Counted from the first letter of the stretch, positions 3,953 through 62,853 are shown. The stretch is DNA of 64,000 nt from Vulcanimicrobiota bacterium (GCA_963820825.1 CAWGBN010000008.1:320001-384000); one strand, 5' to 3'. The notes: a model not told the origin generated them from the sequence alone. Program-made: numbers and translations.

Positions 3953-3963
3953 CCCCAGCTACG

Positions 3964-4260: not shown

Positions 4261-4336
4261 TGGTGGGCGATGACGGGCTCGAACCGCCGACATCCTCCTT
4301 GTAAGGGAGGCGCTCTCCCAGCTGAGCTAATCGCCC
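4261..4336 (-). tRNA. tRNA-Val (TAC)
   Basis: Reverse complement GGGCGATTAGCTCAGCTGGGAGAGCGCCTCCCTTACAAGGAGGATGTCGGCGGTTCGAGCCCGTCATCGCCCACCA; 76 nt, TAC anticodon, encoded CCA. Confidence 0.97.
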
Positions 4337-4352
4337 TCGCGGATCGCCTCGG

Positions 4353-5897
4353 TCACCACGGGAAATGGCGCCGGTTGGCCAGTTTGAACGTGACGTAGGC
4401 GAGAGCCTTCGTCGCAAGTTCCAATATGAACGGATCGTTGTTCGAGAGATTGTCGCACCAGCGATGCGGATGGTCGACGCAGCCACCGTTAAAGCTCGGG
4501 ATCTTGCCCTCGTAGTTGCCGAGGAAGCCGCCCCAGACGTTCTTCTCCCACGGATGCTTGCAGCAGTCTTGCTCGGTGAGAATGCCCGAGTTGGGAACGC
4601 CGACGAGGCTGAAGGCAAACGAGTCGGTTCCGTCGTTGCCGAAGCGCGCCGGGCGTCCGATCACGCCGCCGGCATGGAAGTAATCCTTGAAATAATCGTT
4701 GCCGATCTTTGAGTCGGGAACGACGTTGGGTGGAAAACGCTTTACCTTGGTGGCGTGCGCCGGATCGGCGATGAGGATGTCGTAGTTCGGCGTCGCCGTC
4801 ACGTCGGCATCAATGTCGAAGACGATATCCTGGAGCTCCGATTTCGCGAGATGCGTGGTGTAGTAGCGCGAGCCCAACAGTCCGAGCTCCTCGCCGCCGA
4901 ACCAGATGTAGCGGAGCCGATTGACCGTGTGCGTCTTTGCCAGGTTGAGCGCGATCTCAAGAATCGATGTCGAGCCCGAAGCGTTGTCGAGCATTCCAGC
5001 GCCGTAGATTGCGTCGAGGTGCGCGTCGACGACCACGACACGCTGAGGATTGCCGTACGGCGAATCGGCGATCACGTTGTAATCGAGATCGCTGCGCGAC
5101 TGCTTCCGGATCTCGATGCGAACGACCGGCGCGCGTCCGGAGAGAGATCGGTGCACGAGATCGAGGCCGACTTGCGACGTGACGACGCCGGCGACCGGAA
5201 CGCGCGCGGGATCGATCAGCCGCGCCTCGTAGGCGCCGCGCCGCGGATCGTCAGCGTAAAGAATCACCGCAGCGGCGCCGGCCGACTCCGCGTTCTCGAC
5301 CTGCGTATCGAAATCGCAATCGCCGGCCTCCAGTAACGCAACGTGACCGCGGGAGAAACCCGCGAGATCGCCCGGCGAGCAGCCGGCCGCAGAGCCTGCC
5401 GGCGCTTCGACCGCAGCCGTCACCGCCCCGGCGCCCGAAAGCCGCGCAACGTACCAATCGCGCTCGAGTGCATAGTTGTTATCACTCGTGCGAAAAACGG
5501 GCACGCCGACGACTTCGGATTTCTTATAGACGTACTGCTGAATCGTTACGTTATAGCCGGCTTTTCGCATGAGCCCGGCGACGTAGGCAACCGAAGCGGC
5601 GTAACCCGGCGTTCCGGTGTCGCGATTGGGATGGCCTTGGCCGCCGGGGTTCTGATCGGCGATCCGCTGAAAATGCGCTAACCGGCGCCAGAGCGAGGCC
5701 CGCGCAATGCACGCTTCGAGCTTCGCCAAGGTATCGTTGACCCGGCGCTCGCAGCTTCGCGGCCCCAGCGCTCGGCCGGCGCTCGGCGCGGCGTCGCCGG
5801 CCGGCACGGAAGGCGCCTGCTGCAGTCCCGCCGGCTGGCAAGCGGTCAATGCGCACAGCAAAACGGAAAGCGCGAGGCGACCGATCAGGTTTAACAT
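4353..5897 (-). CDS. M28 family aminopeptidase with PA domain (lipoprotein)
   Basis: DAHLD, GMLDNASG and FGGEELGLLGS motifs; PA-domain CDFDTQVENAESAGA; ALTAC lipobox. Confidence 0.9.
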   Translation of the reverse strand: MLNLIGRLALSVLLCALTACQPAGLQQAPSVPAGDAAPSAGRALGPRSCERRVNDTLAKLEACIARASLWRRLAHFQRIADQNPGGQGHPNRDTGTPGYAASVAYVAGLMRKAGYNVTIQQYVYKKSEVVGVPVFRTSDNNYALERDWYVARLSGAGAVTAAVEAPAGSAAGCSPGDLAGFSRGHVALLEAGDCDFDTQVENAESAGAAAVILYADDPRRGAYEARLIDPARVPVAGVVTSQVGLDLVHRSLSGRAPVVRIEIRKQSRSDLDYNVIADSPYGNPQRVVVVDAHLDAIYGAGMLDNASGSTSILEIALNLAKTHTVNRLRYIWFGGEELGLLGSRYYTTHLAKSELQDIVFDIDADVTATPNYDILIADPAHATKVKRFPPNVVPDSKIGNDYFKDYFHAGGVIGRPARFGNDGTDSFAFSLVGVPNSGILTEQDCCKHPWEKNVWGGFLGNYEGKIPSFNGGCVDHPHRWCDNLSNNDPFILELATKALAYVTFKLANRRHFPW

Positions 5898-6350: not shown

Positions 6351-7685
6351 TTAGGTCTTATTCGTCGCGATCTTCTTCTGCAGCAACGCGATGGCGGCGC
6401 GCAGCTGAGCGTCGGTCGCGACGTCACCGAACCGGGCGTCGCGGTTCTCGTCGACGCGAACGTCCGGGTCGATTCCGCGCAGATTGATGTCGCGCCGGCT
6501 CGGCGTGAGATAGTGCGCGGTCGTGATTTTGATTGCGGCGCCGTCGGGCAGCGGCGTGAGCGTCTGCATGACACCCTTTCCGAAGGTCTTCGCGCCGACG
6601 AGCATCCCGATGCCGTCATCTTGCAGCGCTCCGGCGGTGATCTCCGACGCCGACGCGGTGTATTGATTCACCAGCACCGTCACCGGCAAGCTGATCGACG
6701 GATTGCCGTCGGCATCGATCGTGGTGGCGCGTTTGCCGCGCTCTTCGACCGTAAGCAACGCCTTGTTCGCGATGAAGCGCGAGCTGATGTCGAGCGCCGA
6801 GTTGACGTATCCGCCGCCGTCGTTGCGGAGATCGAGCACGAGCGCCTTGGCTCCCAGTGCGTTGAGGCGCGAAACCGCCGTATCGAACTCGTTGGGCGTC
6901 GCTCGGCCGAACTCCATCACCCAAACGTATCCGATGCCGTCGGCAAGCATCTTGAAGACGACGGTCGGCGGCTGCACGTCCTCACGCGTGATCGTGAAAA
7001 CGGCCGGAGCGTTGGCGTGCTGCACCGATACGGCGACGACGGTCCCGGATTTGCCGCGAAGCCGCCCGCTGACGACGTCGACGGTTTGACCCTTCGTGGA
7101 GACTCCGTCGATGGCCGTGACGACGTCGCCGACCGCCATCCCCGCGCGTTCGGCCGGCGTCGCGGGCAATACGTACGTTACCCGTACGCATCCCGTTGCC
7201 TGATCGGGCTCGATCATCACCCCGATGCCGCTGATCTTTTCGGGATCGAGAGCCTGGTTAAACGCCTTGAACTCGGCGGGCGTAAAGAACTGCGTGTACC
7301 GGTCGTTGGTTGCCTTCGCCATTCCCGCGATGGCGGCGTACGCAAAATCGCTCGGCGATGCGTGCGCGGTGCGCGCGGCCGACGCAATCGCGCCGTCGAG
7401 CTCGGCGAGCGTCGCGTCGCGATCGCCCTCCACTTTCAGCGTCGGCGGAGCCATCGTCACGCCGTGCTTGTGCGCGGCATCTGAAAGCGCGTTGGCTGCG
7501 GCCGCAAGCAGCGCTTGCGGATCGACCGTGTCGTAGTAGGTGCCGGTTAGAAGTTGGAAGCTCTCGGTTACGTCGCCGGCGACTTGATACGGAAGCGCGG
7601 GCGGCGCAGACGTCGCGCCCAAGCAGAGCGCGAACAATGCGGAGATGGCAACGGTACGTCCAACGAGCTCAGAAAACGGCTTCAT
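6351..7685 (-). CDS. S41 C-terminal processing peptidase (CtpA-like, PDZ)
   Basis: GIGVMI PDZ segment, DLRNDGGG, TASASEI, TFGKGVMQ. Confidence 0.93.
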   Translation of the reverse strand: MKPFSELVGRTVAISALFALCLGATSAPPALPYQVAGDVTESFQLLTGTYYDTVDPQALLAAAANALSDAAHKHGVTMAPPTLKVEGDRDATLAELDGAIASAARTAHASPSDFAYAAIAGMAKATNDRYTQFFTPAEFKAFNQALDPEKISGIGVMIEPDQATGCVRVTYVLPATPAERAGMAVGDVVTAIDGVSTKGQTVDVVSGRLRGKSGTVVAVSVQHANAPAVFTITREDVQPPTVVFKMLADGIGYVWVMEFGRATPNEFDTAVSRLNALGAKALVLDLRNDGGGYVNSALDISSRFIANKALLTVEERGKRATTIDADGNPSISLPVTVLVNQYTASASEITAGALQDDGIGMLVGAKTFGKGVMQTLTPLPDGAAIKITTAHYLTPSRRDINLRGIDPDVRVDENRDARFGDVATDAQLRAAIALLQKKIATNKT

Positions 7686-7728
7686 GGGTCCCCTCTTCGA
7701 TTCTTATCGCAATAACGCATAGCAAGCG

Positions 7729-8688
7729 TCAAGCGTTTCGGCTTGCCGCCGCCCGGACGAGGCGGTCCATCATCGCAAGGCCCAACCCAGCCTCGGGTAA
7801 AGGCTGAGCATCGATCCGCTCGAGTCCAAGGGAGTCGAGCTCGTGGAGCGCTTCGAAGAAAGATGCGGCTGCCGCACGCAAGTCCCCTTCCCGGGAGAGC
7901 GTCCGGACTGCCGCGTACCCCTCGCTCTCGTCGCGCAACGCGAGCAGTCCGGCCCGCCGGCGCTGCGCGAGCGGCACCAGGGCCGGATCGATTAGCCGCA
8001 GCGGCGTCCGCGGCGCGTAATGGTGCGGCAACTGCCCCGGGGCCGTCGCCGGACCCGTTCGAGCCCCGCGCTCGAGCGGGCCGGTGATCGACTCGATCGC
8101 CTCGATAGGAATCGCTCCCGGGCGCAGCAGGGCCGGACGGGGCTCGAGGGCGACGATCGTCGACTCGATACCGTGCTCGCAGGGGCCGCCGTCCAGAACG
8201 AGATCGACGCGGTCACCGAGGCCCTCGCTGACGTGCTGCGCGCGCGTCGGACTCAAGTGACCGAACGGGTTCGCGCTCGGCGCGGCCAGCGGCGCCCCCA
8301 GCGTTGCAAGCAACGTGCGCGCGACCGGATGCGAGGGCACGCGTACCGCGACCGTGCTCAAGCCGGCCGTCACCAGCCCGGGAACCGCGGCGCTCTTGCC
8401 GAGCACCAACGTGAGCGCGCCCGGCCAGAAGCGATCGATCAGACGTTCTGCCGACTCCGGAACTCGTGAGACGACGCTTGCGAGCATCGCACGATCGAGT
8501 ACGTGCACGATCAGCGGATCGAAGCTCGGCCGCTGCTTGATCTCAAAGATTCGCGCGACCGCAGCACGATCGAAAGCAAGCGCTCCGAGACCGTAGACCG
8601 TTTCGGTAGGAAACGCGACGACGCCGCCGGAGCGCAACGCAGCGGCCGCTCGCGCGATGCTCTGCGAATCTGCCGGCAAGACGGGCAC
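7729..8688 (-). CDS. sua5: L-threonylcarbamoyladenylate synthase (Sua5/TsaC)
   Basis: VAFPTETVYGLGA, KQRPSFDPLIVH, APSANPFG, APGQLPHHYAP and a SUA5 C-terminal domain. Confidence 0.95.
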   Translation of the reverse strand: MPVLPADSQSIARAAAALRSGGVVAFPTETVYGLGALAFDRAAVARIFEIKQRPSFDPLIVHVLDRAMLASVVSRVPESAERLIDRFWPGALTLVLGKSAAVPGLVTAGLSTVAVRVPSHPVARTLLATLGAPLAAPSANPFGHLSPTRAQHVSEGLGDRVDLVLDGGPCEHGIESTIVALEPRPALLRPGAIPIEAIESITGPLERGARTGPATAPGQLPHHYAPRTPLRLIDPALVPLAQRRRAGLLALRDESEGYAAVRTLSREGDLRAAAASFFEALHELDSLGLERIDAQPLPEAGLGLAMMDRLVRAAASRNA

Positions 8689-8730: not shown

Positions 8731-10092
8731 ATGCCGGGTCTTGGGCGCTCCCCGCGGCTTTTACCGCTCGCCGCGCTACTATTGGCCGCCTTCTTTTCCG
8801 TGCTGCTCGAGGGTTGCAGCGGCGGCGGCTCGACGCCGTCGGCTGCGGGCCCGCTCCCGCCACCGCCGCCGGCGAAGCAGGGAAAGTACTTCACGCACAT
8901 CGTGATCGTCGTCCAAGAGAACCGCACCTTCGACAATCTCTTCGCGACGTTTCCGAATGCCGACGGCACGACGCGCGGCAAGACGCATAACGGTAAGACG
9001 TATTTGCTTCGCAAGGCCAATCTCGAGAGTCCGATCTCCCCGAATAACGGCTACCAATACTGGAAGCGCGACTGGAACAACGGAAAGATGAACGGGTTCG
9101 ACACCGTTCCGATCGGCAAGACGCCCGGAACCTACGTCTACCAATACGTCAACCCCGATCAGATCCGCTCCTATTGGGAGCTCGCCTCGCAGTACGTGCT
9201 CGCCGATCACACCTTTCAGAGTCAGGGCAGCGGCAGCTTTACCGCGCATCAAGACCTGATTCGCGGCGGTACGCAGATCGACGCGACGCAGAGCCTCATC
9301 GACTTTCCGAGCAGCGCACCGTGGGGATGCGACTCGCCGACGGGAACGCGAACGTCCCTGATCACCGCGGCCAATCAGTACGAGTTTCTGCAAGGCCCGT
9401 TTCCGTGCCTGAGCTATCGTACGCTGCGCGATCTGCTCGACGGTTCCGGCATATCGTGGCGCTACTACACGCCGGCAGTCGGAAGCTTCGGCGGCAATCT
9501 CTGGAACGCGTTCGATGCGATCGGGGCGGTCCGCAACGGCCCGGAATGGGCCGCAAACGTCATCTCGCCGGAGACGCAAGTCTTCACCGATATCGATCGC
9601 AACACGTTACCGGCAATCTCGTGGGTCATTCCGGATTTCAAGAACTCCGATCACCCGGGAGACAACTCCGATACCGGGCCGTCGTGGGTTGCGCAGGTCG
9701 TCAATGCGATCGGCAAGAGTCCCGCGTGGAAGACGACCGCGATCCTGATTGTTTGGGACGATTGGGGCGGGTGGTACGATCACGTCGCGCCGCCGGGCGG
9801 TCGCCGGTTCGGCGGCTTGGGATTCCGCGTTCCGCTCATCTCCGTCGCCCCGTACTCGAAGGAAGGCTACGTCGCGAGCCGCGCCTACGAGTTCGGCAGC
9901 ATCGTGCGATTCGTCGAGGATAACTGGGATCTCGGACGTCTCGGAACGACCGACCAGCATTCGGCCGATTTCGTGCACGACTTTTTCGATTTCACTCAGA
10001 ACCCGCGCAAGTTCGTCCCCGTCGACTCATCCTATTCTAGAGCGTATCTCCTGGCGCAGCCGCCGTCGAACGAGCCGGTCGACAACGAATAA
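8731..10092 (+). CDS. Phosphoesterase/phospholipase C family lipoprotein
   Basis: LEGC lipobox; QENRTFD, QGSGSFTAHQ, SDHP, WDDWGGWYDHV. Confidence 0.9.
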   Translation: MPGLGRSPRLLPLAALLLAAFFSVLLEGCSGGGSTPSAAGPLPPPPPAKQGKYFTHIVIVVQENRTFDNLFATFPNADGTTRGKTHNGKTYLLRKANLESPISPNNGYQYWKRDWNNGKMNGFDTVPIGKTPGTYVYQYVNPDQIRSYWELASQYVLADHTFQSQGSGSFTAHQDLIRGGTQIDATQSLIDFPSSAPWGCDSPTGTRTSLITAANQYEFLQGPFPCLSYRTLRDLLDGSGISWRYYTPAVGSFGGNLWNAFDAIGAVRNGPEWAANVISPETQVFTDIDRNTLPAISWVIPDFKNSDHPGDNSDTGPSWVAQVVNAIGKSPAWKTTAILIVWDDWGGWYDHVAPPGGRRFGGLGFRVPLISVAPYSKEGYVASRAYEFGSIVRFVEDNWDLGRLGTTDQHSADFVHDFFDFTQNPRKFVPVDSSYSRAYLLAQPPSNEPVDNE

Positions 10093-10094
10093 AA

Positions 10095-11432
10095 GTGACC
10101 AAGATTAGTGACGTTTATCAACCCCTACGCCATACGCGTTCGGTCAAATGGAAGACCGGCTCAGACGGCGAACCGTCGGAAGAGTTCGGTATGCATATTT
10201 TAGAGAAGTCGTGGGGCGCTATTGCCCCTAAACACCGGCTACAATCGGTGCCGGTGATCCTTGCCGACTTCGAGCGGATCGGAGTCACCGAGCCCGTCGC
10301 ACAAGACGAGCTCAAAACGATTCAAGCGCACTTCATGACGCTCGCGCAGTGCGCCGCGCGTGGGATCGTCGACGAGGCCGAGCGCGAGCGCCTGGCCGCA
10401 AACTTACGGGAGCGCATGGCGCGTTACGGCACCTCGTCGGAGTACATCGCGCAACGCCAAGTCAGCGTGCTTACCTCGTGCTTCGTCGAGCCCGACGCCG
10501 CCAATCCGTCGGACCTCGTGCGCCGCTACGGCGACTTGCGCGCGCCGACCGGCGAAGCGCTCGACGAGCGGATGACTCTCTACGAAGAGGTTGCCTGCGA
10601 CGTCTTCGAACGCGTCTATGCCGATTCCGAAGCGCCGCCCGACGAGATCGTGCACGTGAGCTGTTCGGGATACGTTTCGCCGAGCCCGGTTCAGACGTTC
10701 CTATCGCGGCGCGGCTGGCTCAACGTCGGCGTGACGCACTCGTACCACATGGGCTGCTACGGCGCGTTTCCGGCGATTCGCACGGCAGTCGGCCTCGTCG
10801 GATCCTCCTACGTATCGCTGCCGAAGCCGAAGCGGCGCGTCGATCTCGTTCACACCGAGTTTCTCTCGCTCCACTTCGACCTGCTCGGCGAAGAGCCCGA
10901 CAACTTCGTCACCTCGACGCTCTTCGCCGACGGCTTCATTAAGTATCGCGCCTATCCGGAGTCTGAGTTCCCGCAGGGCCGCAGCGGACTCAAGATCCTC
11001 GCGATCGACGAGCACATTCTGCCCGATTCGCTCCCCGAGATGACGCTGCGCCCGGGACCCCTGCAGTTCGACATGTCGCTCTCCAAGCGAGTTCCGTTCA
11101 TGATTCGCGACTCGATCGCCGATTTCGTTCGTTCGATCTGCGCGCAGACCGGTCTCGACTTCGAGCGCGAGAAGTCGGCGATGGTCTTTGCGATTCATCC
11201 CGGCGGTCCGGCGATTCTCAATCAGATACGCAGCCGAATCGGCATCGAGGAGTCACAGATCGCACTGAGCCGCCGCGTTCTCTACGAACACGGCAACATG
11301 GCCTCGGCGACCGCGCCGCACATCTGGCAGCATATCGTGGAATCGCCCGAGATTCCCAGCGGAGCGAAGGTCCTAAGCATGGCATTCGGACCCGGTTTAA
11401 CGGTTATCGGCGCACTCTTCGAGAAAGTGTAG
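10095..11432 (+). CDS. Type III polyketide synthase (chalcone synthase-like)
   Basis: Catalytic triad motifs HMGCYGA (Cys), IHPGG (His), GNMASAT (Asn); AFGPGLT. Start may be ATG 10191. Confidence 0.92.
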   Translation: MTKISDVYQPLRHTRSVKWKTGSDGEPSEEFGMHILEKSWGAIAPKHRLQSVPVILADFERIGVTEPVAQDELKTIQAHFMTLAQCAARGIVDEAERERLAANLRERMARYGTSSEYIAQRQVSVLTSCFVEPDAANPSDLVRRYGDLRAPTGEALDERMTLYEEVACDVFERVYADSEAPPDEIVHVSCSGYVSPSPVQTFLSRRGWLNVGVTHSYHMGCYGAFPAIRTAVGLVGSSYVSLPKPKRRVDLVHTEFLSLHFDLLGEEPDNFVTSTLFADGFIKYRAYPESEFPQGRSGLKILAIDEHILPDSLPEMTLRPGPLQFDMSLSKRVPFMIRDSIADFVRSICAQTGLDFEREKSAMVFAIHPGGPAILNQIRSRIGIEESQIALSRRVLYEHGNMASATAPHIWQHIVESPEIPSGAKVLSMAFGPGLTVIGALFEKV

Positions 11433-18141: not shown

Positions 18142-19501
18142 AATCCGGTATCATGTCGTCGTTAGGGAGTTGGTGCATGAAGAATCTCGGCGGTTTCGGC
18201 GCCGCAATCTTCACGAACGGGAGCGGTTTTTGGCGAAAGTCGAAGCACTCACGCGCCGGCGAGTTTGCACGCGCGTCGGCCGCCGCGAGCTGCCCCAAGT
18301 CCCACAGGTTCTCGGCGAAGCGCAGCACGCTTGCCGTCTCGTACTGTTGGTGCGCGACGGTGCCGCGCCGCGCGTACGGTGAGACGACGATCAGCGGGAC
18401 TCGGAATCCGAGCCCGTCGTAATCTTCGTATGGCGGCGGAACGTGATCGTACATTCCGCCCCAATCGTCCCAGGTCACGAAGATCGCCGTCGACTTCCAG
18501 AACTTGCTTTCGCCGACGGTATTGACGAGCGCGGCGACCCACGAAGGCCCGTACCCGCCGCCGCAGTTCGAATGATCGGAGTCGGCGCAGACCGGCGTGA
18601 TCCAGGTGAAGTTTGCAAGCTCGCCGTTGCGTACGTCGGTGATGAACTTCCAGTTCGGCGAGACGACGTTCTTCCAGTCGGGACCGTACCGGATGTGCCG
18701 GACGGCTTGGAAACTCGACCAGAGACTCGCATTGCCGCTCGACGGGCTACCGTATCGCGACGCGTAAAACCGCCAGGAGAGTTTTGCCGCGTCGAGCTCG
18801 TCCGCGAGCGTCTGATAGTTGTAGCACGGATGAATGAGCTGTCCGTACGTCATCCGGTTCTTGGTAATCGTGAAGATGACGTTCTGCTTTCCACCGCCGC
18901 AGCCCCAGAAGCCGCGCGGCAGATTGACGCTCGCGGCCGCCTGGGCGGCGATAACGTATTGATGCGCGACGAAACTCTCGTCTAGCTGCGACTGAAACAT
19001 CCGGTCGGCGACCACTCCTTCGCGCGCCATGTCCCAGTACGGCTGTGAGTCCTTGCGCGGGACGTAGACGTACTGGTCGTGCGTCGGACCTCCGAACGAC
19101 GTCTCTTTATCGAAGCCGTCCATGAGACAGTCGATTCCCGGCAGTACCTGCTTGCCGTCGCACGCGCGAAACATCGCCGTGGTCGAATGATCGACCTGGT
19201 ACTGCAAGGCGAGACTCGCGGGCCGAAGCCGGATCGTCTCTCCCGCGGAGTCCTTGCCTTTCGTTACCGTATCGGCCCCGGGATACCCCATGAAGAGGTT
19301 GTCGAAACTGCGATTCTCCTGCACGATGAAGATGACGTGCGAAATCTTTCCCGCGCCGGTCTCGCCGAGCGCGCGCATTGCCGCGCCGCTTCGCATTCTG
19401 TCATCCTGAGCGGAGCGACCGGAGGGAGCGAAGTCGAAGGACTGCCGTACGCAGCCGGCGAGCATCAAACCCGCCGCGATAAAAACGATCCGCTTACTCA
19501 T
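18134..19501 (-). CDS. Phosphoesterase/phospholipase C family lipoprotein
   Basis: Start at MSKRIVF (19501), LAGC lipobox; family motifs; REP-like insert in the linker. Confidence 0.9.
19399..19442. repeat. REP-like palindromic element inside CDS
   Basis: TGTCATCCTGAGCGGAGCG...GAAGTCGAAGGA. Confidence 0.75.
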
Positions 19502-20837
19502 AATCCGGTGCGAAGTAGTCGTCGGGGAGTTGCTGCATAAAGAACTTCGGGGGCAGCGGCGCCGCGATCTTAACGAACGGGCGCGGTTTCTGGGTGAAAT
19601 CGAAGCAGTCTTTGGCCGGCGAGGCCGCGCGCCGGTCGGCCGCCGCGAGCTGATCGAGCCCGAAGACGTCTTCGGCGAAGCGCAGCACGCTTGCCGTCTC
19701 GTACTGGACGTGCGAAACGTGACCGTGCTTTGCGTAGGGTGAGATGACGAGCAGCGGAACGCGGAAGCCGAGGCCGTCGCGACCGACGTACGGCGGCGCA
19801 ACGTGATCGTAGAGGCCGCCCCAGTCGTCCCAAATCACGAAGATCGCGGTCGAGTCCCAGAACTTGCTCTTGCCGACGGTGTTGACCAGCGCCGCGACCC
19901 ACGACGGACCGTACCCGCCGTAGCAGGCGACGTGATCGGAATCGTCACAGACCGGCGTGATCCAGGTGAAGTTCGCGAGCTCGCCGTTGCGAACGTCGGT
20001 GATGAACTTCCAGTTCGGCGAGATGACGTCTTTCTTCCAGTCGGGGCCGTAACGGATGTGGCGGACGGCTTGATAGCTGGAATACGCGGAGCTCTGTCCG
20101 CTCTGTTTGCTCCCGAACTTCGCGGCATAGAAGCGCCAGGTAAGCTTCGCTTTGTCGAGCTCGTCGCCGAGCGTTTGATAATCGAAGCAGGGCGCGATCT
20201 TGGGACCGTGGGTGTCGCGGTCTTTGGTGATCGTCGCGACCGTATCTCGCTTGCCGCCGGTGCAGCCCCAGTCGTAGGTTGGGAGATCGACGCTCCAGGC
20301 CGCCTGCGCCGCGATGATGTACTGATGCGCGACGAAACTCTCGTCGAGCTGCGACTGAAACGTCTGGTCGGAAACGACCCACTCGCCGGCCATGTCCCAA
20401 TACGGCTTCGAATCGCGGTGCGGCACGTAGACGTAGGCCGGATTCGTCGGGCCGCCCGAATCTTGCTCGTTGTTGAAGCCGTCCATCCGGCAGTCGGTTC
20501 CCGGCAGCTTCCCGGTTCCGTCGCATGCCGCAAACATCGCCGCCGACGAGTGATCGATGTCGTAAGGAAAGCCTTTGAGATGATAGGGAATCAGCTTGAT
20601 CGTCTTACCGTAGGAATCTTTGCCGCTGGGGACCGTATCGGCGTGCGGATAGCCCTGGAAGAGATTGTCGAAGCTGCGGTTCTCTTGCACGATAAAGACG
20701 ACGTGCTCGATCTTTCCCGCACCCGTCTCGTTGAGCGCTTGCAGCGCCGTCCCCGCACGCATGTACGGCAATGCGCCGGCATGCGAACACGCAGCGAGCG
20801 CGAGGGCAAGCCCCGCGCAGGCCAAGCGCTTATTCAT
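19494..20837 (-). CDS. Phosphoesterase/phospholipase C family lipoprotein
   Basis: LAAC lipobox; [27 protein letters not shown]. Confidence 0.9.
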
Positions 20838-54413: not shown

Positions 54414-54562
54414 CCGAGAGCTCCTTTCAATCCAACAGCGGCGAGGCCTGAAGGGCGAGGGATTCTAGCATCAAGCGGGCCCATTAGACCTAAGATGCGC
54501 CTACCTGCTGCCCTTGTAACATGTATCCATGATGGCGCTGCGGCGCGATTAGCGGAACGGAC

Positions 54563-54585
54563 ACTTGGACAACCGACTTGGACAA
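54563..54585. repeat. Tandem ACTTGGACAA boxes
   Basis: ACTTGGACAA at 54563 and 54576; partial TCGGACAAG near 54625. Confidence 0.5.
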
Positions 54586-54840
54586 GTGCGACCGATGCCG
54601 CCGAGGGCGTCAAGGCGCGGAGTCTCGGACAAGGCTTTAGAAGAAGCCTGTGCGTCGGCCCACGGCTCCGCGGGCACCTTGCCGCTCGGCGGACCGTCGT
54701 CTTACCGCGCCCCTTGCCGCAACCGGTATTGAATCCATGCTACTACACTTCTGCCCGCTGATGCTAAGCCGTGTGCGGGCACTCCGTTGACGACGTCGTC
54801 GCGAACCAATGCCTGATGGACACGATGGGCTTCGCCGAGG

Positions 54841-54871
54841 GATAATACATAAGGGCCTTCAAACGTCCGGT
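54841..54871. repeat. 31-bp direct repeat, copy 1 (dif-like)
   Basis: GATAATACATAAGGGCCTTCAAACGTCCGGT. Confidence 0.92.
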
Positions 54872-54890
54872 GCTGCCGACCCCAGCGCAT

Positions 54891-55887
54891 TCACGCCTCC
54901 GAGGATTGCTCGCTCTCGCCTGACTGATCGACCCGCAGGATGGCCTCCGCGATCTCCGCGTCTAGTCCGGGCTCGCTGGCTTTGCGAAGCTCAATAAGCC
55001 GGTCAGCCGCCCAAGTGGCCACTTTATCAATCTGGCTCGCAAGGGACGCTCGCTCGACGTTTTGAATGACGCGGATCGCCTGTCGGCGCCTGCCTTCTTG
55101 GAAGTCCCATGCGATGACACCGTTGACCCCTTCCTGGATCGAGTTCGAGCGCGCTCTAAGCAGTTCAAAAAGCCGCGCGTTAACGCCCGAGTCGGCGTGA
55201 TACAAAAAGACGTCCGAGCGTAGCTGATTCCGTCCAAAATTGACTGAGTACGCTATCGCTCCTTGGTGGGTTCGCTCCAGTACGTAGTCGGTATAGCGAC
55301 TCAAGGGCTCCAGCAATCGAGCGAATGCGCCACTGGCAACGGCGATCTCATGGATGCTGTCAAAAACCGCATTGAGTTGCTCTTGATCGGGCGCAACTTC
55401 GGTGCTCCTGGCTATCTGCGAAGTGCTTTTTTGCCACTGGTTCGGCAAGACCACAGTTCGGAAGTTGACCGCCGGCTTGGAGTCGTCGCAGCACTTCGAC
55501 TTGGATTCCAAAGAAATGCCTTGTGGCGATCGTGTTTACGTTAAGCCAGTCCAACGCCGCGCGATGCTCCTCCCGAAAAGTTGGGCTAATCCAGACGATG
55601 TGCCTTGCGTCTAATCCGGATGCATACGTCAGGATTTGGCCGAGGTGACGATGGTCGGTCGGTTCGATCTGGTTCTCGATGATGACTAGATCGTCCGTGC
55701 CAACGACGCGTGCGAGGATGTCTAATGAGAACGAGCCGACTTCGGCCTCACGTTTTAACAACTCTAGTTCGAGGCCTAGCATATCGCCGAGACGGTCAAG
55801 ATTGTCGGCAACCCACTTCGAGAAATGCACAGGTTCCGTAGGGAAGGTCTCACGAGGATTCAAGAAACGAAGCGTCCCGAGATCCAT
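54891..55887 (-). pseudogene. DUF4268-type protein with N-terminal PD-(D/E)XK nuclease-like domain, frameshifted near 55490
   Basis: FSLDILA...VIIENQIEPTDHRHLGQILTYASGL; continues as DDSKPAVNFRTVVLPNQW in ORF 54891-55511. Confidence 0.75.
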
Positions 55888-55951
55888 ATTAGCCTGTTCT
55901 CCTGAGATTGATATCGCTTAGCAGCTAAGAGCCTTCGGCGCGAGCGGCGCT

Positions 55952-55982
55952 GATATTACATAAGGGCCTTCAAACGTCCGGT
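55952..55982. repeat. 31-bp direct repeat, copy 2 (dif-like)
   Basis: GATATTACATAAGGGCCTTCAAACGTCCGGT. Confidence 0.92.
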
Positions 55983-56021
55983 TTGCGTTCGGCAGATCGC
56001 GACGCGGGCACATTGCCAGTC

Positions 56022-57044
56022 CTATAAAGCCAAGGTAATTACAACGGCAGAAATTCTTATGAGCGCGCGCTTCGTGAAGGAGTGAATCGTGTTGATGGGA
56101 GCCACGTTACCATTGGAGCCGGCGGCATAAACGTTTATTCCGGCTGCGCGCCCGTTTGCTTCGTAGATGTTGTCGGAGCTGTCCAGAGCGATGCCAATTG
56201 GACGTCGCATCGTTGTCAGGTGTCCATGGATCTTGCGGATGGGTGCTTCGTTGCCATCGGCTCCCGCGGGGTACACCGTAGAGATAGGCTGGATTGGAGT
56301 TAAAGTCTGCCACGTATATGTTCCCGCTGGAATCGAACGCGAGCTCCGTAGGATGAACCAATTTCGTACGGCTGCCAGCGATCGTTCGCATGGGCGTAAC
56401 GTTAGCCGTGCTGCCAGCGGCGTAGACGGTGATAGACGCCCCCGGCGTTTGCAACGTAAATGTTTCCACTTGTGTCCAGCGTGATCCCAGCCGGGAAAGA
56501 CAGTCCGGTACTTGGGCCGCTGATTACTCCGAGGGGAGCGACGTTTCCACTTGCGCTCGCTGCGTAGATCGTGATGCTGTTGTTTTCCAGAGTTTGCAAC
56601 GTAGAACTCTTCATTGTATTGGTCGAAGGCAATGCCGAAAGGGCTGTTCAATCCCGTTGCTGGGCCTCTTATCTTCTGTATTGGCGCGACATTCCCCATC
56701 GCGCCAGCGGCGTAGACGGTAACGGAGTCCCCACCGCCCTGGTTTGTAACATACAGGTTGCCGCTTCCATCTTCCGCGACGTCCCTCGGCGCAGCAAGCC
56801 TGGTGTTTGAGCCGCTTATCTCTCGTATCTGCGCCCAGTTGCCGCTGGTGCCTTCGCGCCCAAAGACCGCCAACGTCCTGCTCCATAAGGTATATAGGCA
56901 GGGGCACGAACTCGTGCTCCGTTTGATAGTTCCTGATTGGTTTTGCTGAGCGGCGTTCGCGCTTGAAAAGAGGGTATTTCCCCCGCAGCTTGTAAGTAAC
57001 AAAATCGCCATCGATGGGGCAACGATGTACGTTGCGGTTGACAT
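56022..57044 (-). pseudogene. NHL-repeat beta-propeller lipoprotein, several frameshifts
   Basis: LTSC lipobox; repeated PxGIALDSSxNIYVAN...VYAAGxxGNVAP units spread over three frames. Confidence 0.75.
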
Positions 57045-57167
57045 GCGCACAATCACGCTCCTTTTTCTGCAACTTGCAATGCGCGGCAAGGTCCTAAGCT
57101 ACTTATCTAATGATCCCTGCCGCCCTCCTGGTGAATCAAAGGACAAGGCGGTCGGACCGCGGTTGCC

Positions 57168-57198
57168 GATACTACATAAGGGCCTTCAAACGTCCTGT
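57168..57198. repeat. 31-bp direct repeat, copy 3 (dif-like)
   Basis: GATACTACATAAGGGCCTTCAAACGTCCTGT. Confidence 0.92.
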
Positions 57199-57210
57199 TA
57201 GCCTGCGTCC

Positions 57211-59208
57211 TCATCCGTTGCTTACTGCATGCGTCATCGCTGGCACCCATGCAAACGAGAAGAGGTCGCGCATCCCATCTGCATCGATTCCGTTCGGTCC
57301 CACCCCGAACGCGTCGAAGAGTCTGCCGTACTTGCGGGTAAGCGCATAAACCAGGTTTACGTTCTCCTCAATCTGCTGCTCCGGCAGTTCCGGGTATTCG
57401 TCCGTCCGATTGCGGTGCGCCACATATTGGTTGGTGATGGTTACCAGCGCACGGCAAGCCTTCTTGAGCGCCTTTATGTCAGCCGCAATCTTCTCCGAGC
57501 TCATGTGAGTACCTGAGGCATCGGCAATGGCGGCAAAAGCTGCGGCGGCTTCGCCTTCGTATCGCTCTTGCCATTCGCGCCGAACCGACAGCGCTCTGGT
57601 CTTGAGCGTCTCGACGCACTTCTCAAGGCCGTAGGCCGTCGGATTGAGTTTTAGCTCTGTTAGGAAGTTTAGGAGGGAGACGCTGCGAACATCTGAGTCG
57701 ATCTGGCGGCGTACAGCCACCATGACGGATTCGACGACGGCTCTAGCGATGAACAAGAACATGTAGATGCTCGCAGGATGCTCGACGACGCGCGCATTCG
57801 ACATGCCAGCCGCGTGAATGACCTTGAAGTGTTGCCATACCGTCCAAGCATTGTTGATTTCAATGCCGATGGTTTCGATGTCAGCCTTCCATCTCGCGAT
57901 AAGGGCTTCGTCTGTGGGGATGCGACGGCGTTCCCATGGCTTGATCGCAACGAGTGTGCGGCGGAAGAACTCAAGGAAGCGCTCCAGGTCTGCGTGTGGA
58001 TCGGGATTGTAGAATGTGCCCGAGCCATCTTCGTGTTGCACTAAGACGACGTGCTTCATCGGTGAGCCGAGCAGAGCGAGCTTCGCCTTGTAACGAGCCA
58101 TAGCGATGACGTAATCACGCATCTCGCCTGTGAAGTAGTCCGCATCAGTGAAGTAGCCGAGCTCGACGGCTTTCGCGTCGATCTCTTCGTCGCTAAAATC
58201 GTTATCGTCGGCGTAGACTACCTGCTGGGTCAACAGCTCACGGTGAACCGAAGTGTGCCGCATATCGCGCAATAGCCCATAACTATCCCAGAACGCGTCC
58301 TCTTTGAACAGCGCATAAACCTCCGGTGCGCTCTGCTTGATAGCGCGTTGAAACGATGACTTGAGAGCGCCTATTTGAGAATCTGGAGTTGGCAAGTTGT
58401 ATGCTCTTACGATCAACGTCGCGGTTTGATCGAACGCGGTGTAAAGATTCACGTAGAACTGATTTAGATAGGCAGTGTATTCGAAACGGAAATCCTGACG
58501 CTCGAACCCTGCTCGGTGCGCCCAGCGATCCTGCTGACGGTAGAATGCCATCCGGTCGCGACTAAAGCAGAGCGTCTGGAGAGTCAGTACGAGCAGGCGC
58601 ATCGCTTCCGCGGTTTCCGACGACACCTTCTTCGACTGCTCCCACTCGTGGAGAATGTCCGTGAAAATGCTGTGCTCGCTCATTGCGTAGAACTGCATCC
58701 ATGGTTGAAACTTCGCCGCCCCTTCGAACGACCACGGAGCGTTAAAACCCTTGGCATGCAATTCCGCTTGTCGCAGAACTCCGGCTATCGTGCTCGTCAC
58801 CAGCGCCGAATCGTCGGTGATGGCTGGATGCAGCTGCTTTTCGTCGCCCGACAGAACAACGTCGCAGTCGTAGCGTCTCGCGATTCGTGCAACCTCGTCG
58901 GCGTCGGACTCATCGAAAGCCGCAATCTTACTAAACTCGACGGTGAGCGATTCGAGCGTGGCAATCGCAGTAGCCGCCTGCGCGGGAACGAACAACGTGA
59001 CCTTCAGATCATCGAAGCCGAGGTCCGCGAAATACCAGTTCAGCAGTTGGATGCGCGCGAGCCGTTCGCTGTTTGCGGCGTCCAGGGTCTGGTCGGCGAC
59101 GAGCACGTCCAATCCCCTCTTCCAGAGACCCGTGCTCGTTATCGTAGCCGTGCCGTAATCGTAGAGGAACCGTAGGGCGAGATTCCGTGGAATCATTTGA
59201 ACCACCAT
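57211..59208 (-). CDS. Multidomain HEPN protein (possible PIN-like + HEPN + AbiU2-like HEPN)
   Basis: 665 aa. Acidic N-terminal motif (SDADEV...DCDVVLSGD), RHTSVH (Rx4H), and a C-terminal DSDVRSVSL...TNQYVAHRN segment resembling AbiU2. Confidence 0.6.
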   Translation of the reverse strand: MVVQMIPRNLALRFLYDYGTATITSTGLWKRGLDVLVADQTLDAANSERLARIQLLNWYFADLGFDDLKVTLFVPAQAATAIATLESLTVEFSKIAAFDESDADEVARIARRYDCDVVLSGDEKQLHPAITDDSALVTSTIAGVLRQAELHAKGFNAPWSFEGAAKFQPWMQFYAMSEHSIFTDILHEWEQSKKVSSETAEAMRLLVLTLQTLCFSRDRMAFYRQQDRWAHRAGFERQDFRFEYTAYLNQFYVNLYTAFDQTATLIVRAYNLPTPDSQIGALKSSFQRAIKQSAPEVYALFKEDAFWDSYGLLRDMRHTSVHRELLTQQVVYADDNDFSDEEIDAKAVELGYFTDADYFTGEMRDYVIAMARYKAKLALLGSPMKHVVLVQHEDGSGTFYNPDPHADLERFLEFFRRTLVAIKPWERRRIPTDEALIARWKADIETIGIEINNAWTVWQHFKVIHAAGMSNARVVEHPASIYMFLFIARAVVESVMVAVRRQIDSDVRSVSLLNFLTELKLNPTAYGLEKCVETLKTRALSVRREWQERYEGEAAAAFAAIADASGTHMSSEKIAADIKALKKACRALVTITNQYVAHRNRTDEYPELPEQQIEENVNLVYALTRKYGRLFDAFGVGPNGIDADGMRDLFSFAWVPAMTHAVSNG

Positions 59209-59278: not shown

Positions 59279-60625
59279 TCAAGGCCTCTGGTTTCGTTCA
59301 GGGCTGTTGCTTGCGCGGCCGGTGACTCGGCGCCGGTTATTCTCGGCGAGCACGGCGCCTCGTTTCTTCGCCGCCTCGCCTCCGTGCCCGGGATTAAGAC
59401 CGGCCGCACGCATCTCAGCAAGCCGCGCCTGCGCCTTCTCGATCGGCTTCGCTACCTCGACGCTATAGCGCAGATAGCAATGGCGCCCGCAGAACTTCAG
59501 TCCTTTCCGCGGTAGCGGCTCCTTGCAGTAGCCGCAGGTGGACTCGATCCCACGCCGCGCGCCGCTGCTCGATCGGCTTCGGCGCTTCGCGAACCAGCCG
59601 CCGCGGCACGGCGATCCGGCGCAACTGCTTGGCGTAGTCGTTCGCGAGCTCCAGCGCCGCCTTGCGGAAACGGGGCATCAGCGCCGAGGCGAGGAGTCCC
59701 GTCAGATCGGGATCGAGCCGTACAACCCCATCGCGCAGCTCATGGAACATCGCCGGGTGCAGCTTCTCTTTGTGGAGCAGCTCCAGCGCCCACACGTCGG
59801 CCTTCGCTCGCAGCGGTTCGAGCAGATCGTAGATGAACGATTCGCGCAGCCGATCGTCGGTGTGGAGCAGCCCAAGGTCGGGGTCGAGCCCGACCGCCTC
59901 GCAGGCGATCCGCGTCTCCACTTCGAGCAGCGTATAGCAGTAGTTCAGGATCGCGTTGAACGGATCGGTCGCATCGCGTACCCGTTCGCGTCTCCCGTTT
60001 GTCCGCGGACGAGATCGCCGCCCAGTGCGCCGGTATCCGCTTGAGTGCCCACGGTCGCCACGGCAGCGGCGTCTCGACTAGGAGATTCCAGTAGACTTGT
60101 GCGGCACGTCCCTCCAGCGCGAGGAAGTCCACAAGCGTCGTCGTTTCCATCAGCGACGCTTTGCATGCGTGGATTTCCGAGGTTGCCGTGGACTTCCCGG
60201 AGACGTTCACGATTCCGAGTCTCGGAAAGTCTCGTTCGATCGCGGAAATCTGCGAGTCCAGTTTCTTTTCCAAGGAGGTACCGCGCCAAGTTCACCGCGT
60301 CGTCCGTCACCGCGGAGACCGCCTGTGCCCGCTTCACCGGTCCGTCGTGCGGCGCGTCGGGAACCATGCAGTTCAGCAAGGTACTGTCGGACGCCACGAA
60401 CGAGACGGCGATCCCCATGCGGGCACACCAGTCGATCGCCTCCATCGAGACGGTCCCGCCCGGCGCGCGAATGACGATCCGTTCGATCGAGCACCGTCCG
60501 CGCGGGAAGCGGATTTCCCGGGTCTTTCCTTCGCTTGCGAAACCGTCGCGCGTGACGAGGTGGCCTCGCTCGACAAATAGTTGCGCGTTGTAGCCTTCGA
60601 TGGTGAGAACGCGATCATTGTGCAT
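59279..60625 (-). CDS. cas1: Stand-alone Cas1 (casposase-like) with C-terminal zinc finger; three frameshifts as assembled
   Basis: N-domain GGTVSMEAIDWCARMGIAVSF; LEGRAAQVYW (Glu); ATDPFNAILNYCYTLLE; GLDPDLGLLHTD (His); SFIYDLLEPLR. Tail CGYC...FCGRHC, stop at 59279. Indels near 60270, 60005 and 59545. Confidence 0.9.
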
Positions 60626-61616
60626 GGTCTACTCCAATGACTTTTGGAACGAGTTTGTAGGTTGTTGCAAACGAGTCGATTGCGGTATCGATCCCCTGTG
60701 TGTCACCAGCGAGGTAAGCCGCCATATTCGCTATGCCCCTCTCGTCGTGACTGACGTCGAATGCACCAGCATAGGCGAGGCTGCGAAGCGCAGCATCCGT
60801 CGCCTCGAACTCCGATGCATCTTCGACGATCGGGTAGCTGGGCACCGGACGAATCGGCACGCGCACGCCGGCCGCTTCCAAACGCCCAATGAGCAGCGCC
60901 TGCATCTGCATCGTCTGAACCGCAGCGCGAACCTCCGGCTCGGGGGCATCTCCACTCGTAACGATCTGAAAATGGCTGTGCCGGCCCTGACGAAGCCAAG
61001 GCGTGATTTGGTCTAGTAGAAGCATTGCTTTGGGTGCAAACTCGATCGCTGCGCTCTCATCAACGCGCATCATTGTAAGTAATCGAATAACGTCGCGCTC
61101 GAAGAAAGCGCCCTCGTTGTAGGCTACGGGAAGCAGCATGCGGGCGGCATGCTCGGTAAGGTCTCGCGCTAGTTGGTAGGCGGGGTCAGCTTTGATCTTT
61201 CGCTTCGGCACGAACTCATTCGCCAGCTGTCGCGCAAGATGCGGGATGCGCCGCGGATGAAAGCCGATGCCGCTCCAGCTGTTCGCGCGATGGAGCTCCC
61301 GATCGACCTTCGCCAACGCCGCGGAAATTCGATCGCGGGCGCCGCGATGCACCCGGTCCCATGGAATGGTGTGGTAGTTGCGATAGGCCAGTTCGAGACA
61401 GAGGCCATCATGATCGCGGGCAAGCTGCATAGTGCCCTCGATCGACAATATGTATCGCAGATCGATCAGCGCGGCATCGGAGATCCGGTATTGGCGTCCG
61501 CAGCGCGTCGAGCGTACGCCAAAAATGCGTAGCCGGTGCAACTTGTCCGACCCGATCCTAAAGCCCTCAGCCCGCAGCTGGTCGAGGGCCTCGCTCAAAA
61601 GCGGTCCGTCAACCAC
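60615..61616 (-). CDS. Hypothetical protein (possible N-terminal DNA-binding domain), overlaps cas1 start
   Basis: 333-aa ORF whose stop overlaps the cas1 start by 11 nt. Confidence 0.65.
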   Translation of the reverse strand: MVDGPLLSEALDQLRAEGFRIGSDKLHRLRIFGVRSTRCGRQYRISDAALIDLRYILSIEGTMQLARDHDGLCLELAYRNYHTIPWDRVHRGARDRISAALAKVDRELHRANSWSGIGFHPRRIPHLARQLANEFVPKRKIKADPAYQLARDLTEHAARMLLPVAYNEGAFFERDVIRLLTMMRVDESAAIEFAPKAMLLLDQITPWLRQGRHSHFQIVTSGDAPEPEVRAAVQTMQMQALLIGRLEAAGVRVPIRPVPSYPIVEDASEFEATDAALRSLAYAGAFDVSHDERGIANMAAYLAGDTQGIDTAIDSFATTYKLVPKVIGVDHAQ

Positions 61617-61716: not shown

Positions 61717-62214
61717 ATGGCCAAATCACGGGTGTTCCTGGGCATCGACCAACTGTTCTACCACCAGGACGCGTATCGACGCGCCCTCGATGCGATCGGC
61801 TTCAAGCGCCGACATCCCAAAATGTCGTTCACGAAAGCTGCGAAGCTGAGCGGCACCACGATCAAGACGGTTCGCAAGTACGCCGGATCGGCAATGGAGG
61901 TCCGATCCGGACGGATCGACGTAACGCGAACAGATGCGCTCAAGCGCCGGATGCGCATGCTCACGCCCCAGGGTGAGATCGCGGTCCCGACGACGAGCTC
62001 GCAGACTGCCTCGCGGATCAGCCGGTACAACAACGCGGTGCGCGAGTTTTACGCCACCGGCAAGACGGCGGCGCTCAAGCCATTCGTTGGTAAGTCAGTG
62101 CGTTCGGGTGGAAAGCGGTACGAGTTCGTCACGAATCCCGCCACGCTCAACCGGCTTGGCCGCGCTGGCAGCGTACACTTCTCGGAGATCTATGCTCCTG
62201 AGTCCGAATCATGA
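61717..62214 (+). CDS. Basic HTH-containing hypothetical protein
   Basis: AAAGGAGG RBS; SFTKAAKLSGTTIKTVRKYA helix-turn-helix pattern; ATGA overlap with the next gene. Confidence 0.75.
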   Translation: MAKSRVFLGIDQLFYHQDAYRRALDAIGFKRRHPKMSFTKAAKLSGTTIKTVRKYAGSAMEVRSGRIDVTRTDALKRRMRMLTPQGEIAVPTTSSQTASRISRYNNAVREFYATGKTAALKPFVGKSVRSGGKRYEFVTNPATLNRLGRAGSVHFSEIYAPESES

Positions 62215-62853
62215 GGCCCGTCTATCAGGAGCCAAACGACGGCAACGACACCAAGAAGCTGCTGCGCTTGGGCACCGATCGGCCGCGCTGTGCGAGCTGC
62301 CGGACCGACGACTTCCGGCAGCTCTGCTCCGTGCACGACGCTCGGGGCCGCAGACGGATCTTATGCCGGAACTGCCGCGCCAAGCACAAGCGCCTCTCAG
62401 CAGCAGCTGCAGCACGCAAACGGCGGCAGTTTGCAGCTGACGGCTACGAGCAGCCTGCATGCGTGGTGTGCGGGGAGCCAGCGCTGCAGCTGCTTGAGCG
62501 CGATCACCTCACGGGAGCTGCCAATAGCGGTAGCACGGAGCCTTTGTGCGCTAATCATCACGCGATCAAGTCGTACATGGCCGAGCACGGGCTGATGGCA
62601 GCTCTGCGGCTGCGTGATCCGGAGCGATCGGCCTTGCTTTTGCAGGCAGCATTCGAGTTCGGCCTTGGTGCGATGCTCGGGATGTTCGCAGTTGGGACGG
62701 CGCGCACGGAGAGACGGCACGCTGCATCTTCTTGGGTCGCCTCCGTGCTGCTCTTTGCATGGGCTGCGTGGAACGTTTCGGCGGACTGCGTACTTCGAGG
62801 GTGTACTGGGACCGGGCTACGATCGCGCGATCGGGGCGGCGGTGCCGCGATGA
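62211..62853 (+). CDS. Zinc-finger/HNH-like protein with hydrophobic C-terminus (frameshifted)
   Basis: CASC, CRNC, CVVC...RDHLTG...LCANHH. The likely true end YFEGVLGPGYDRAIGAAVPR* at 62853 overlaps the polB ATG. Confidence 0.65.

Follow-up and report, generated by a model that had tools for sequence, protein, structure and literature searches.

Direct repeats beside single genes in a Vulcanimicrobiota genome as likely reiterated ends of a casposon

Which kind of element leaves the same short sequence three times in a row, each time just beyond the end of a single gene? The question is raised by a 64,000-nucleotide stretch of DNA from a Vulcanimicrobiota bacterium (GCA_963820825.1, CAWGBN010000008.1:320001-384000), called here the window, in which positions are counted from the first letter. 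An earlier note, made from the sequence alone, saw in it an integron-like stack of one-gene cassettes bounded by 31-bp dif-like sites. In this study we find that the repeat is very likely not a dif-like site but the end of a casposon, a self-synthesizing element that relies on Cas1 and possesses a family B DNA polymerase (PolB), terminal inverted repeats (TIRs) and target-site duplications (PMC4046053). We also consider it likely, with good confidence, that the three repeats are copies of such an end and that the genes between them are cargo stacked there. The window's genome, referred to as G000, is assembled in 9 contigs (2.98 Mb, 85% complete); other genomes of the genus are designated by G-numbers and extracted loci by L-numbers.

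The repeat as the end of a mobile element

The sequence GATANTACATAAGGGCCTTCAAACGTCCKGT matches the window at 54841-54871, 55952-55982 and 57168-57198, always on the plus strand and without mismatch, and has no match in 100 dinucleotide-preserving shuffles of the window, even with three mismatches permitted. The copies are spaced by 1111 and 1216 bp and their flanking DNA is unrelated, while the G+C content of the cargo region at 55.0-59.0 kb is 52-58%, against 63% for the contig and the genome. They end 19, 39 and 12 nt, respectively, from the stop of a minus-strand open reading frame (ORF; 54891-55511, 56022-57089 and 57211-59208). In these respects the earlier note is borne out, and its labels for the three genes (DUF4268-type, NHL lipoprotein, HEPN) are roughly correct by Pfam and PADLOC, the first gene being split by a frameshift.

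The 31 nucleotides are the inner part of a 33-nt terminal repeat, hereafter R, with the consensus GGGATAY TACAYAAGG, eight variable nucleotides, A[CG][GT]TCCGGT. A logo of 41 distinct sites shows that positions 1-16 (GGGATAYTACAYAAGG) and 25-33 are conserved and that positions 17-24 vary, a pattern that contradicts the 11-6-11 division proposed earlier. The outer copy in the window, R1 (54839-54871, plus strand), is the true casposon terminus: it starts GGGATAA and matches the nhmmer profile over positions 1-33 with 38 bits. R2 (55950-55982) and R3 (57166-57198), both on the plus strand, are internal direct copies without the two terminal G's; R2 starts CTGATAT and matches profile positions 3-33, and R3 starts CCGATAC and ends CCTGT. 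The central eight nucleotides are the same in all three copies. Position 7 reads A, T and C in turn, and the 10-12-nt extensions on the inner side of R1, R2 and R3 differ from one another, which points to separate origins of the copies and not to copying in place.

What R bounds can be seen in related genomes. Seven inverted R pairs, spanning 2.8-18 kb, were examined there (16,254 bp in G022, 16,204 bp in G035:C10, 18,063 bp in G005, 16,992 bp in G081, 7,395 bp in G029, 4,547 bp in G014 and 2,838 bp in G012), and all seven bear identical 14-bp duplications immediately outside both GGG ends. The TIRs of these complete pairs are 33-37 bp long, but 1,242 bp in G022. In the window, a 14-nt copy of this kind, ATGGGCTTCGCCGA (54825-54838, plus strand), directly precedes R1; it has the position and length of the duplications bounding the seven complete elements and is identical to the 14 nt of an empty target on the same contig (C8:190.6 kb).

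The usual target is a conserved 412-aa ORF, intact and empty in G000 at C8:190133-191371. Its protein has no Pfam match, and the name 'C11 peptidase', for which Pfam gives no support, was rejected. The empty site reads ...aaccaatgcttgatggatacc|ATGGGCTTCGCCGA|cgcg, the insertion point lying beside the coding sequence for QCLMDT|MGFA. In G005 and G081 the ORF is split, with aa 1-185 on one side of the element and aa 181-412 on the other; that the same gene is empty in G000 and split in these two genomes is a sign of mobility. The window contains a 40-nt stub of the target gene (54785-54824, plus strand), in frame as ..VVANQCLMDT, which forms the 'leader' beside the insertion point. By tblastn, window positions 54786-54839 correspond to aa 168-185 of the intact protein at 89%, and by blastn the stub matches C8:190633-190686 at 85% and G007 (L033:9941-10032) at 88%; the frames upstream of it are interrupted by stops. 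This stretch, about 20 nt of it in a synonymous version (CAGTGCCTGATGG...), also stands before many other outer ends, and G022 and G081 have their duplication sequence in common. One public sequencing run includes a contig with the target uninterrupted and another with a different R variant at that place, a weak indication that comes from relatives. Moreover, back-to-back ends separated by one 14-nt segment occur at six loci and at 6 of 54 further outer ends, as insertions recurring at a single target would leave them.

A profile search of G000 yields five R copies in all, at two loci. The two outside the window form an inverted pair at C6:625006-625038 (minus strand) and 626295-626323 (plus strand), and a Cas1 fragment (C6:619993-620424) lies about 5 kb from the nearer one. 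The region C6:616000-636000 (L040) is a second casposon wreck, rich in insertion sequences (IS), with IS3- and IS110-family genes nested mutually. In the genus, an R model (GGATAYTACAYAA-N7-CAAACKTCCGG, centre free, at most three mismatches) matches 39 of 91 genomes, and the same pattern reversed, as a control, matches none; a stricter pattern is present in 9 of 36 genus genomes and in 0 of 24 non-genus genomes. An exact scan of one genome per species gave 54 loci, 52 of which belong to records titled Eremiobacteraeota, Vulcanimicrobiota, Candidatus Cybelea or Candidatus Tumulicola, and the names on Cas1 homologues agree with this distribution.

R can also be found interrupted by other elements. 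At L027 (G035:C2), an IS110-family element with a 378-aa transposase (Pfam DEDD_Tnp_IS110 and Transposase_20) occurs twice (7174-8629 and 9828-11283). Both copies interrupt R at one and the same position, between ..GATAC and TACAYAAGG, and the element appears to target R itself. Another IS110-family gene adjoins an inner R in G102 (L042:8351-9355).

The earlier note reported no recombinase in the window. This does not hold, since a frameshifted cas1 (casposase) pseudogene, recognised by Pfam (Cas_Cas1) and tblastn, occupies 59306-60625 on the minus strand; a recombinase, if a broken one, is therefore visible. Its four pieces (aa 2-121, 117-212, 204-360 and 359-438) lie in differing frames and are 73-86% identical to the Cas1 of G007 and 86-92% to that of G022. 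Cas1 proteins of this clade (at least 74% identity to the G007 protein), which match Pfam Cas_Cas1 and NCBIfam cas1, are full-length in 11 of the 91 genus genomes, with cas1 intact in G007, G005, G081 and G022, and broken in about 10 more. They are encoded within 13 kb of R in G000, G005, G007, G017, G018, G035, G074, G077, G081 and G107, and G022 likewise has the clade's Cas1 with R. An alignment of them (A1) contains invariant acidic and histidine columns. The best match in the PDB is 6OPM, with E 1.1e-17 in the sequence comparison and 3.5e-15 in the fold comparison, where the best CRISPR Cas1 reaches 3.6e-12 and 7.2e-13, respectively. This structure is that of the casposase of Methanosarcina mazei, whose casposon makes 14-bp duplications and whose end in the crystal reads 5'-TATATCCC (PMC6977970). 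The ends of R read ...GTATCCC-3'.

The core of the element also encodes an ORF of about 1000 aa, for which 475 relatives were found. Eight of ten relatives tested match PF03175 (DNA_pol_B_2; E 7.9e-12 to 3.4e-03), and no PF03175 match was obtained with the PolB copies of G022 and G005 themselves. The exonuclease and polymerase motif columns are invariant in an alignment of 20 sequences (A2); we take them to be the PolB exonuclease motifs DxE, NxxFD and YxxxD and the polymerase motifs DxxSMYP, KxxxNSxYG and DTDS. An element without a polymerase was considered and rejected, Pfam being blind to the closest copies while their relatives match PF03175. Two other stretches of G000 match PF03175, C2:409202-409510 and C9:1541-1846, at a contig end and a contig start, with a tyrosine integrase at C9:7817; they presumably belong to another self-synthesizing element, pipolin-like and unrelated to the casposon.

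The R-bearing family thus has a Cas1 integrase, a divergent family B polymerase, TIRs at both ends and a duplication of fixed length, 14 bp, and it qualifies as a casposon by the published definition. The 18-kb casposon of G005 (G005:C47) carries a DruA (Druantia) homologue, a HerA-like ATPase and an Eco57I-type methylase (L039 1057-8306), and at its opposite end a RelA/SpoT-ParA-like four-gene set, so that complete casposons of the family do carry defence-type cargo.

How ends and cargo genes may have become stacked

A clue to the origin of the array comes from the 2.8-kb element of G012. Its outer end (L026:12019-11649) is 93% identical over 371 nt to R3 together with the last 340 nt of the HEPN gene, which indicates that an R moves together with the gene located inward of it. 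Read in this way, the locus is a stack of modules, each pairing an R with the antisense cargo gene that follows inwards, and modules of this kind are common to different genomes. Arrays of one gene plus one repeat do recur, in line with the earlier note. Single slot genes antisense to R encode 342 aa (DUF2332) in G035:C13, 348 aa in G088, 206 aa (CMD family) in G102, 400 aa in G035:C2 and 359 aa at both ends of G022, and in one metagenome contig four direct R copies alternate with ORFs of 257, 384 and 468 aa; the slots of G107, G081 and G014a hold no antisense gene of this kind. The genes between the repeats are accessory and differ among relatives: the HEPN gene is present in 2 of 91 genus genomes (G000 and, as a fragment, G012) and the PDC-S11 gene of the first cassette likewise in 2 of 91.

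The internal copies have features of their own. In a set of 12 internal direct copies, collected irrespective of their first bases, none starts with GG, 11 keep the G at position 3, and the commonest start is CTG. Inside the 54 further outer ends, an internal match of at least 15 bits is found at 8 loci, and one with E up to 1 at 11; all are direct, all begin at profile position 2 or later, and no inverted R was found there. Upstream of internal copies nothing is conserved past a few bases. By eye and by profile search, no 14-nt or other direct duplication flanks each cassette, and no degenerate inverted R lies beside R2 or R3. On the gene strand, R3 is followed by a GC-rich hairpin, GCGGTCCGACCGC, with a T-rich tail (57148-57160, minus strand); TCGGxCCGCG motifs, like that of the R3 hairpin, precede several internal R copies of other genomes.

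The direction of growth can be judged from one pair of loci. G035:C13 has the order leader, duplication, GGG-R(a), DUF2332 gene, R(b), and positions 3743-5000 of a metagenome contig match its R(a)-gene-R(b) part at 95% over 1259 nt (L050:5302-6557). In the metagenome contig R(a) is an inner copy (ACTGATAT...): a module of 1.6 kb has been added outside it, with an outer R and a leader-like flank of its own, and the homology between the two loci begins exactly at GG|GATAT. The pair indicates that growth of the array, or at least variation in it, takes place at the leader side, and that a former terminus turns into an internal copy lacking GG.

We propose that the stack would grow outward at the target ('leader') side, a newcomer placing its own terminal repeat and adjacent cargo gene outside the resident end. 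The most likely route would be repeated casposase integration at the same leader and duplication site, with the interior and far end of the newcomer lost afterwards; the resident's old terminus would persist without its terminal GG, and the casposase may still bind it. We infer this tandem-insertion route for the addition of modules and give it about an even chance. Casposon ends of M. mazei require a 3'-C (PMC6977970), so that loss of the terminal GG should disable the old end, and by this analogy such a terminus is probably unusable for strand transfer.

Several observations weigh against these proposals. Between the cassettes neither the far end of a newcomer nor a 14-nt duplication is left, and random deletions would not be expected to fall so exactly at GG|GATA; a more specific step may therefore act, such as end processing, site-specific joining or a loss of terminal bases linked to replication. 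Gene-free double ends with a spacing of 67-90 nt at five or more loci, and the presence of the same R-gene-R arrangement in both ends of the G022 casposon, fit an inner copy that forms a regular second binding site of the end and is no relic. In the PDB comparisons the casposase leads CRISPR Cas1 by a small margin, and the Cas1 model is mediocre (mean pLDDT 66.8). Finally, the window copy has one end only. Two sequencing runs (6% of sampled words) cover relatives of the HEPN gene and of the target stub; no join across any cassette was seen in them, and they are uninformative on circles or array variants.

Ends that are double by construction are a possibility to be taken seriously, though on balance we doubt that they account for the array. 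In such ends, the outer repeat would be cleaved and the inner one would be an uncleaved site, predicted to bind the casposase, with cargo lodging in the slot between them; the inverted repeat/direct repeat (IR/DR) ends of some eukaryotic transposons are an analogue. This would account for the gene-free outer-to-inner spacing of 67-90 nt (in G018, G014b, G074, L106, L098, L092, L111 and L112) and for the start that internal copies have in common, mostly C-Y-G. It would also suit the apparently intact 16,254-bp casposon of G022:C1 (L108), which has an intact cas1 and whose inverted ends (3256-4497 and 18270-19509; 1,242 bp, 97.6% identity) each comprise an outer R, the 359-aa gene and an inner R. 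However, one outer R can be recognised in another locus as an inner R, and inner copies can thus arise from outer ones; moreover, the entry of genes into the slot and the arrays of three to four copies are left unexplained. Double ends are compatible with cargo stacked at reiterated casposon ends and do not exclude it.

The reiterated end could also reflect a dedicated, Cas1-dependent and leader-polarised stacking of repeat-plus-gene modules. We think this unlikely; if true, such stacking would correspond, at the level of gene cassettes, to CRISPR spacer acquisition, and it would show in living organisms the step from casposon end to repeat array that has been proposed for the origin of CRISPR. 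Also unlikely, in our view, is a Cas1-driven capture of cassettes, in which gene-sized DNA would be inserted at the leader-proximal repeat and the repeat duplicated, as with CRISPR spacers, so that the array would be a gene-cassette analogue or forerunner of the CRISPR array. The direct 31-33-nt copies beside cas1 and a leader-like target, the growth on the leader side, the arrays of up to four copies and the common central eight nucleotides, usually variable, of the three window copies agree with such a capture, as does the proposed origin of CRISPR repeats from casposon TIRs (PMC4779613). On the other hand, the integrase of this family leaves duplications of 14 bp and not of 31-33 bp, no cas2 was seen, and the differences at position 7 and in the inner extensions speak for separate origins of the repeats. 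Furthermore, random fragments are unlikely to give whole genes with tight borders. A CRISPR array itself was not found: the spacing is 1111 and 1216 bp, with no tandem array and no Rfam CRISPR match.

That R is a dif-like site at which Xer-type or other tyrosine recombinases add and remove one-gene circles, as in integrons and pdif modules, is highly improbable. The likeness is genuine: in pdif modules, IMEX and integron cassettes, short conserved sites bound small accessory modules that vary between relatives, and here there is one gene per repeat, in the same orientation, with a content that varies between relatives. R has a variable centre between conserved arms, the centre being identical within the window array; its TACATAA resembles a Xer arm; and the genome encodes one Xer-like recombinase (C5:41767). 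But the arms of R are not inverted copies of one another, the central block is usually not the same in the outer and the inner copy of an end, and neither strand of the 61-nt R regions folds better than shuffles (z +0.41 to +1.91), which argues against an attC-like hairpin. The window and the complete elements scanned yielded no tyrosine recombinase, the five genomic matches to PF00589 lying on other contigs or far from the array. R is in these ways unlike the sites of pdif modules, IMEX and integrons, having neither tyrosine recombinase nor palindrome nor hairpin: the 14-bp duplications at all seven inverted pairs mark transposition, and the linked enzyme is Cas1. What survives of the integron-like stack is a set of modular, variable cassettes at an integration site, their recombination by Xer being improbable.

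Nor does R sit where a chromosomal dif would be expected, at the replication terminus marked by GC skew. The C6 locus is 434 kb from dnaA, and a copy in G014 at 2,001,542 is 420 kb from it. The GC skew is weak, which makes this a soft test, and the C8 array lies in a stretch of steady skew with no switch; on C6 the cumulative skew is maximal at about 680-690 kb, 60 kb from the R copy. Five copies at two loci, these distances and the lack of a switch at C8 led us to reject R as the dif of the chromosome. The search for a separate dif yielded a candidate: a single-copy palindromic sequence at C5:89651-89676, CTCTCCATAA-AAAACT-TTATGGAGCC. The genome has no other perfect CATAA-N6-TTATG, and its sole Xer-like recombinase gene is 48 kb away. 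Of 41 genus genomes searched, 9 contain the sequence, each in one copy, and in the three carriers inspected (G032, G006 and G025) dnaA is on other contigs.

The chance that R is an ordinary repetitive extragenic palindrome (REP), terminator or operator box behind defence genes is negligible, for although R directly follows gene stops and the terminator-like hairpin at 57148-57160 adjoins R3, R has no fold of its own, promoter-like and terminator-like counts are the same as in shuffles, the whole-genome search gave five copies and not a scattered box, and R is tied to duplications, Cas1 and PolB in relatives. A coding reading of the repeat (YYIRAFKRP, plus frame) was rejected, as the variation between copies disregards codon position, and no tRNA, tmRNA or other RNA gene was found as an att site.

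Relation to known casposons

Casposons, 14-bp duplications, tandem insertion and solo ends are already known. The family 2 casposons of M. mazei and Aciduliprofundum boonei resemble the present family in their Cas1 integrase (6OPM being the closest), their 14-bp duplications and their ...ATCCC-3' end (PMC4779613, PMC6977970, PMC6614799). They also share a leader motif and repeated insertion at one site, leading to tandems with one duplication and to solo ends: in A. boonei the motif is needed 9-15 bp upstream of the duplicated segment (PMC6614799), and Methanosarcina has tandem casposons with one common duplication and leftover solo ends (PMC4779613). In contrast to family 2, the window family has a bacterial host (Candidatus Eremiobacterota) and a target inside a protein-coding gene, and the C-terminus of its Cas1 has conserved cysteines (CxxC...CxxxC) and no recognised helix-turn-helix. 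Internal GG-less direct copies with single cargo genes are not described for family 2 in the accessible parts of these sources. The PolB of the window family is of the PF03175 type, whereas RNA-primed PolBs are reported for families 2 and 3.

Family 1 casposons of Thaumarchaeota have EF-2 as their target. They are like the window family in their protein-primed-type PolB and in inserting into a protein-coding gene, and differ in having archaeal hosts (PMC4779613). The bacterial family 3 shares with it bacterial hosts and varied cargo, and differs by intergenic sites and an RNA-primed PolB (PMC4779613). The solo TIRs of M. mazei are a further parallel, being casposon ends that outlast decay beside a conserved target (PMC4779613), whereas the ends in the window are reiterated directly, with whole genes between them, near cas1.

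Our literature search, confined to main texts, found no paper naming both casposon and Eremiobacter and no casposons with reiterated ends. Within that scope, we encountered neither this host phylum nor this target, and no bacterial casposon whose PolB is of the PF03175 type, no gene-holding TIR and no reiterated GG-less ends with single cargo genes.

Casposons are the presumed source of the CRISPR adaptation machinery, and few have been studied, mostly archaeal. The family described here is widespread in soil and peat Eremiobacterota and offers a sequence-specific target within a gene, intact copies, and both occupied and empty sites; some of the cargo genes between repeats are candidate phage-defence genes, and there is at least one case of growth at the leader side. 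It could therefore serve as a system for asking how casposons acquire and exchange cargo and whether repeat arrays derived from ends form naturally. It also calls for caution with short direct repeats of 'dif-like' appearance that surround defence genes, since these may be the ends of transposons.

The window copy and its neighbourhood

The casposon in the window is a dead, one-ended copy of about 11 kb, with cas1 and polB frameshifted and the far end gone. Its homology to the G005 element (83% over 6.5 kb) ends at window-equivalent position 65861, where there is no R, and the profile search of the whole genome found no inverted R on contig C8. The copy sits away from the native target, which remains empty in G000. 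From the outer side inwards, the locus consists of the target stub, the 14-nt copy, R1, the PDC-S11 pseudogene, R2, the NHL gene, R3, the HEPN gene, the cas1 pseudogene, a 333-aa gene, two small core genes and the PolB relic.

All three cargo genes are on the minus strand. Cassette 1 (54891-55887) is a candidate defence gene of the PDC-S11/DUF4268 type with one frameshift; PADLOC assigns PDC-S11 to its N-terminal part (55360-55887, E 7.4e-59) and its C-terminal part (54891-55511, E 2.3e-16), and Pfam matches DUF4268 (E 3e-06). Cassette 2 (56022-57089) is a 355-aa open frame for an NHL/SGL-like beta-propeller lipoprotein, with Pfam matches below the cut-off (SGL, E 2.3e-04; NHL, E 1.7e-03) and a lipobox-like LLLTSCGG at the N-terminus of the translation. 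Cargo gene 3 (57211-59208) is intact and encodes a 665-aa HEPN (AbiU2-like) protein, matching Pfam HEPN_AbiU2 (E 1.1e-08), with a second, weak HEPN match.

Beyond the cas1 pseudogene lies a conserved gene of 333 aa (60615-61616, minus strand), whose start overlaps the end of cas1 and whose homologues stand upstream of cas1 in G007, G005, G081, G022 and G035. Its product has no Pfam, NCBIfam or PADLOC match; in the Atlas it falls to unnamed Actinomycetota clusters, and a resemblance to MerR is weak. Two small conserved core genes follow on the plus strand (61717-62850), homologues of 171-aa and 203-aa ORFs of G022 by tblastn (61765-62211 at 59% and 62244-62816 at 67%). The frameshifted PolB relic starts at 62873 on the plus strand and continues past the end of the window at 64000 to about 65840 in window-equivalent positions; the 1010-aa PolB of G022 matches it by tblastn in pieces in frames 1, 2 and 3 at 34-53%.

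On the other side, to the left of the target stub, the region 54518-54777 holds a 70-250-nt sequence that recurs in at least 10 places of the genome with 68-100% identity, for example at C8:411101, 412977 and 414189, C6:466593 and 501564, C7:4933 and 6225, and C2:231838, 313323 and 317141. It may be either a small repeat family or a common gene start.

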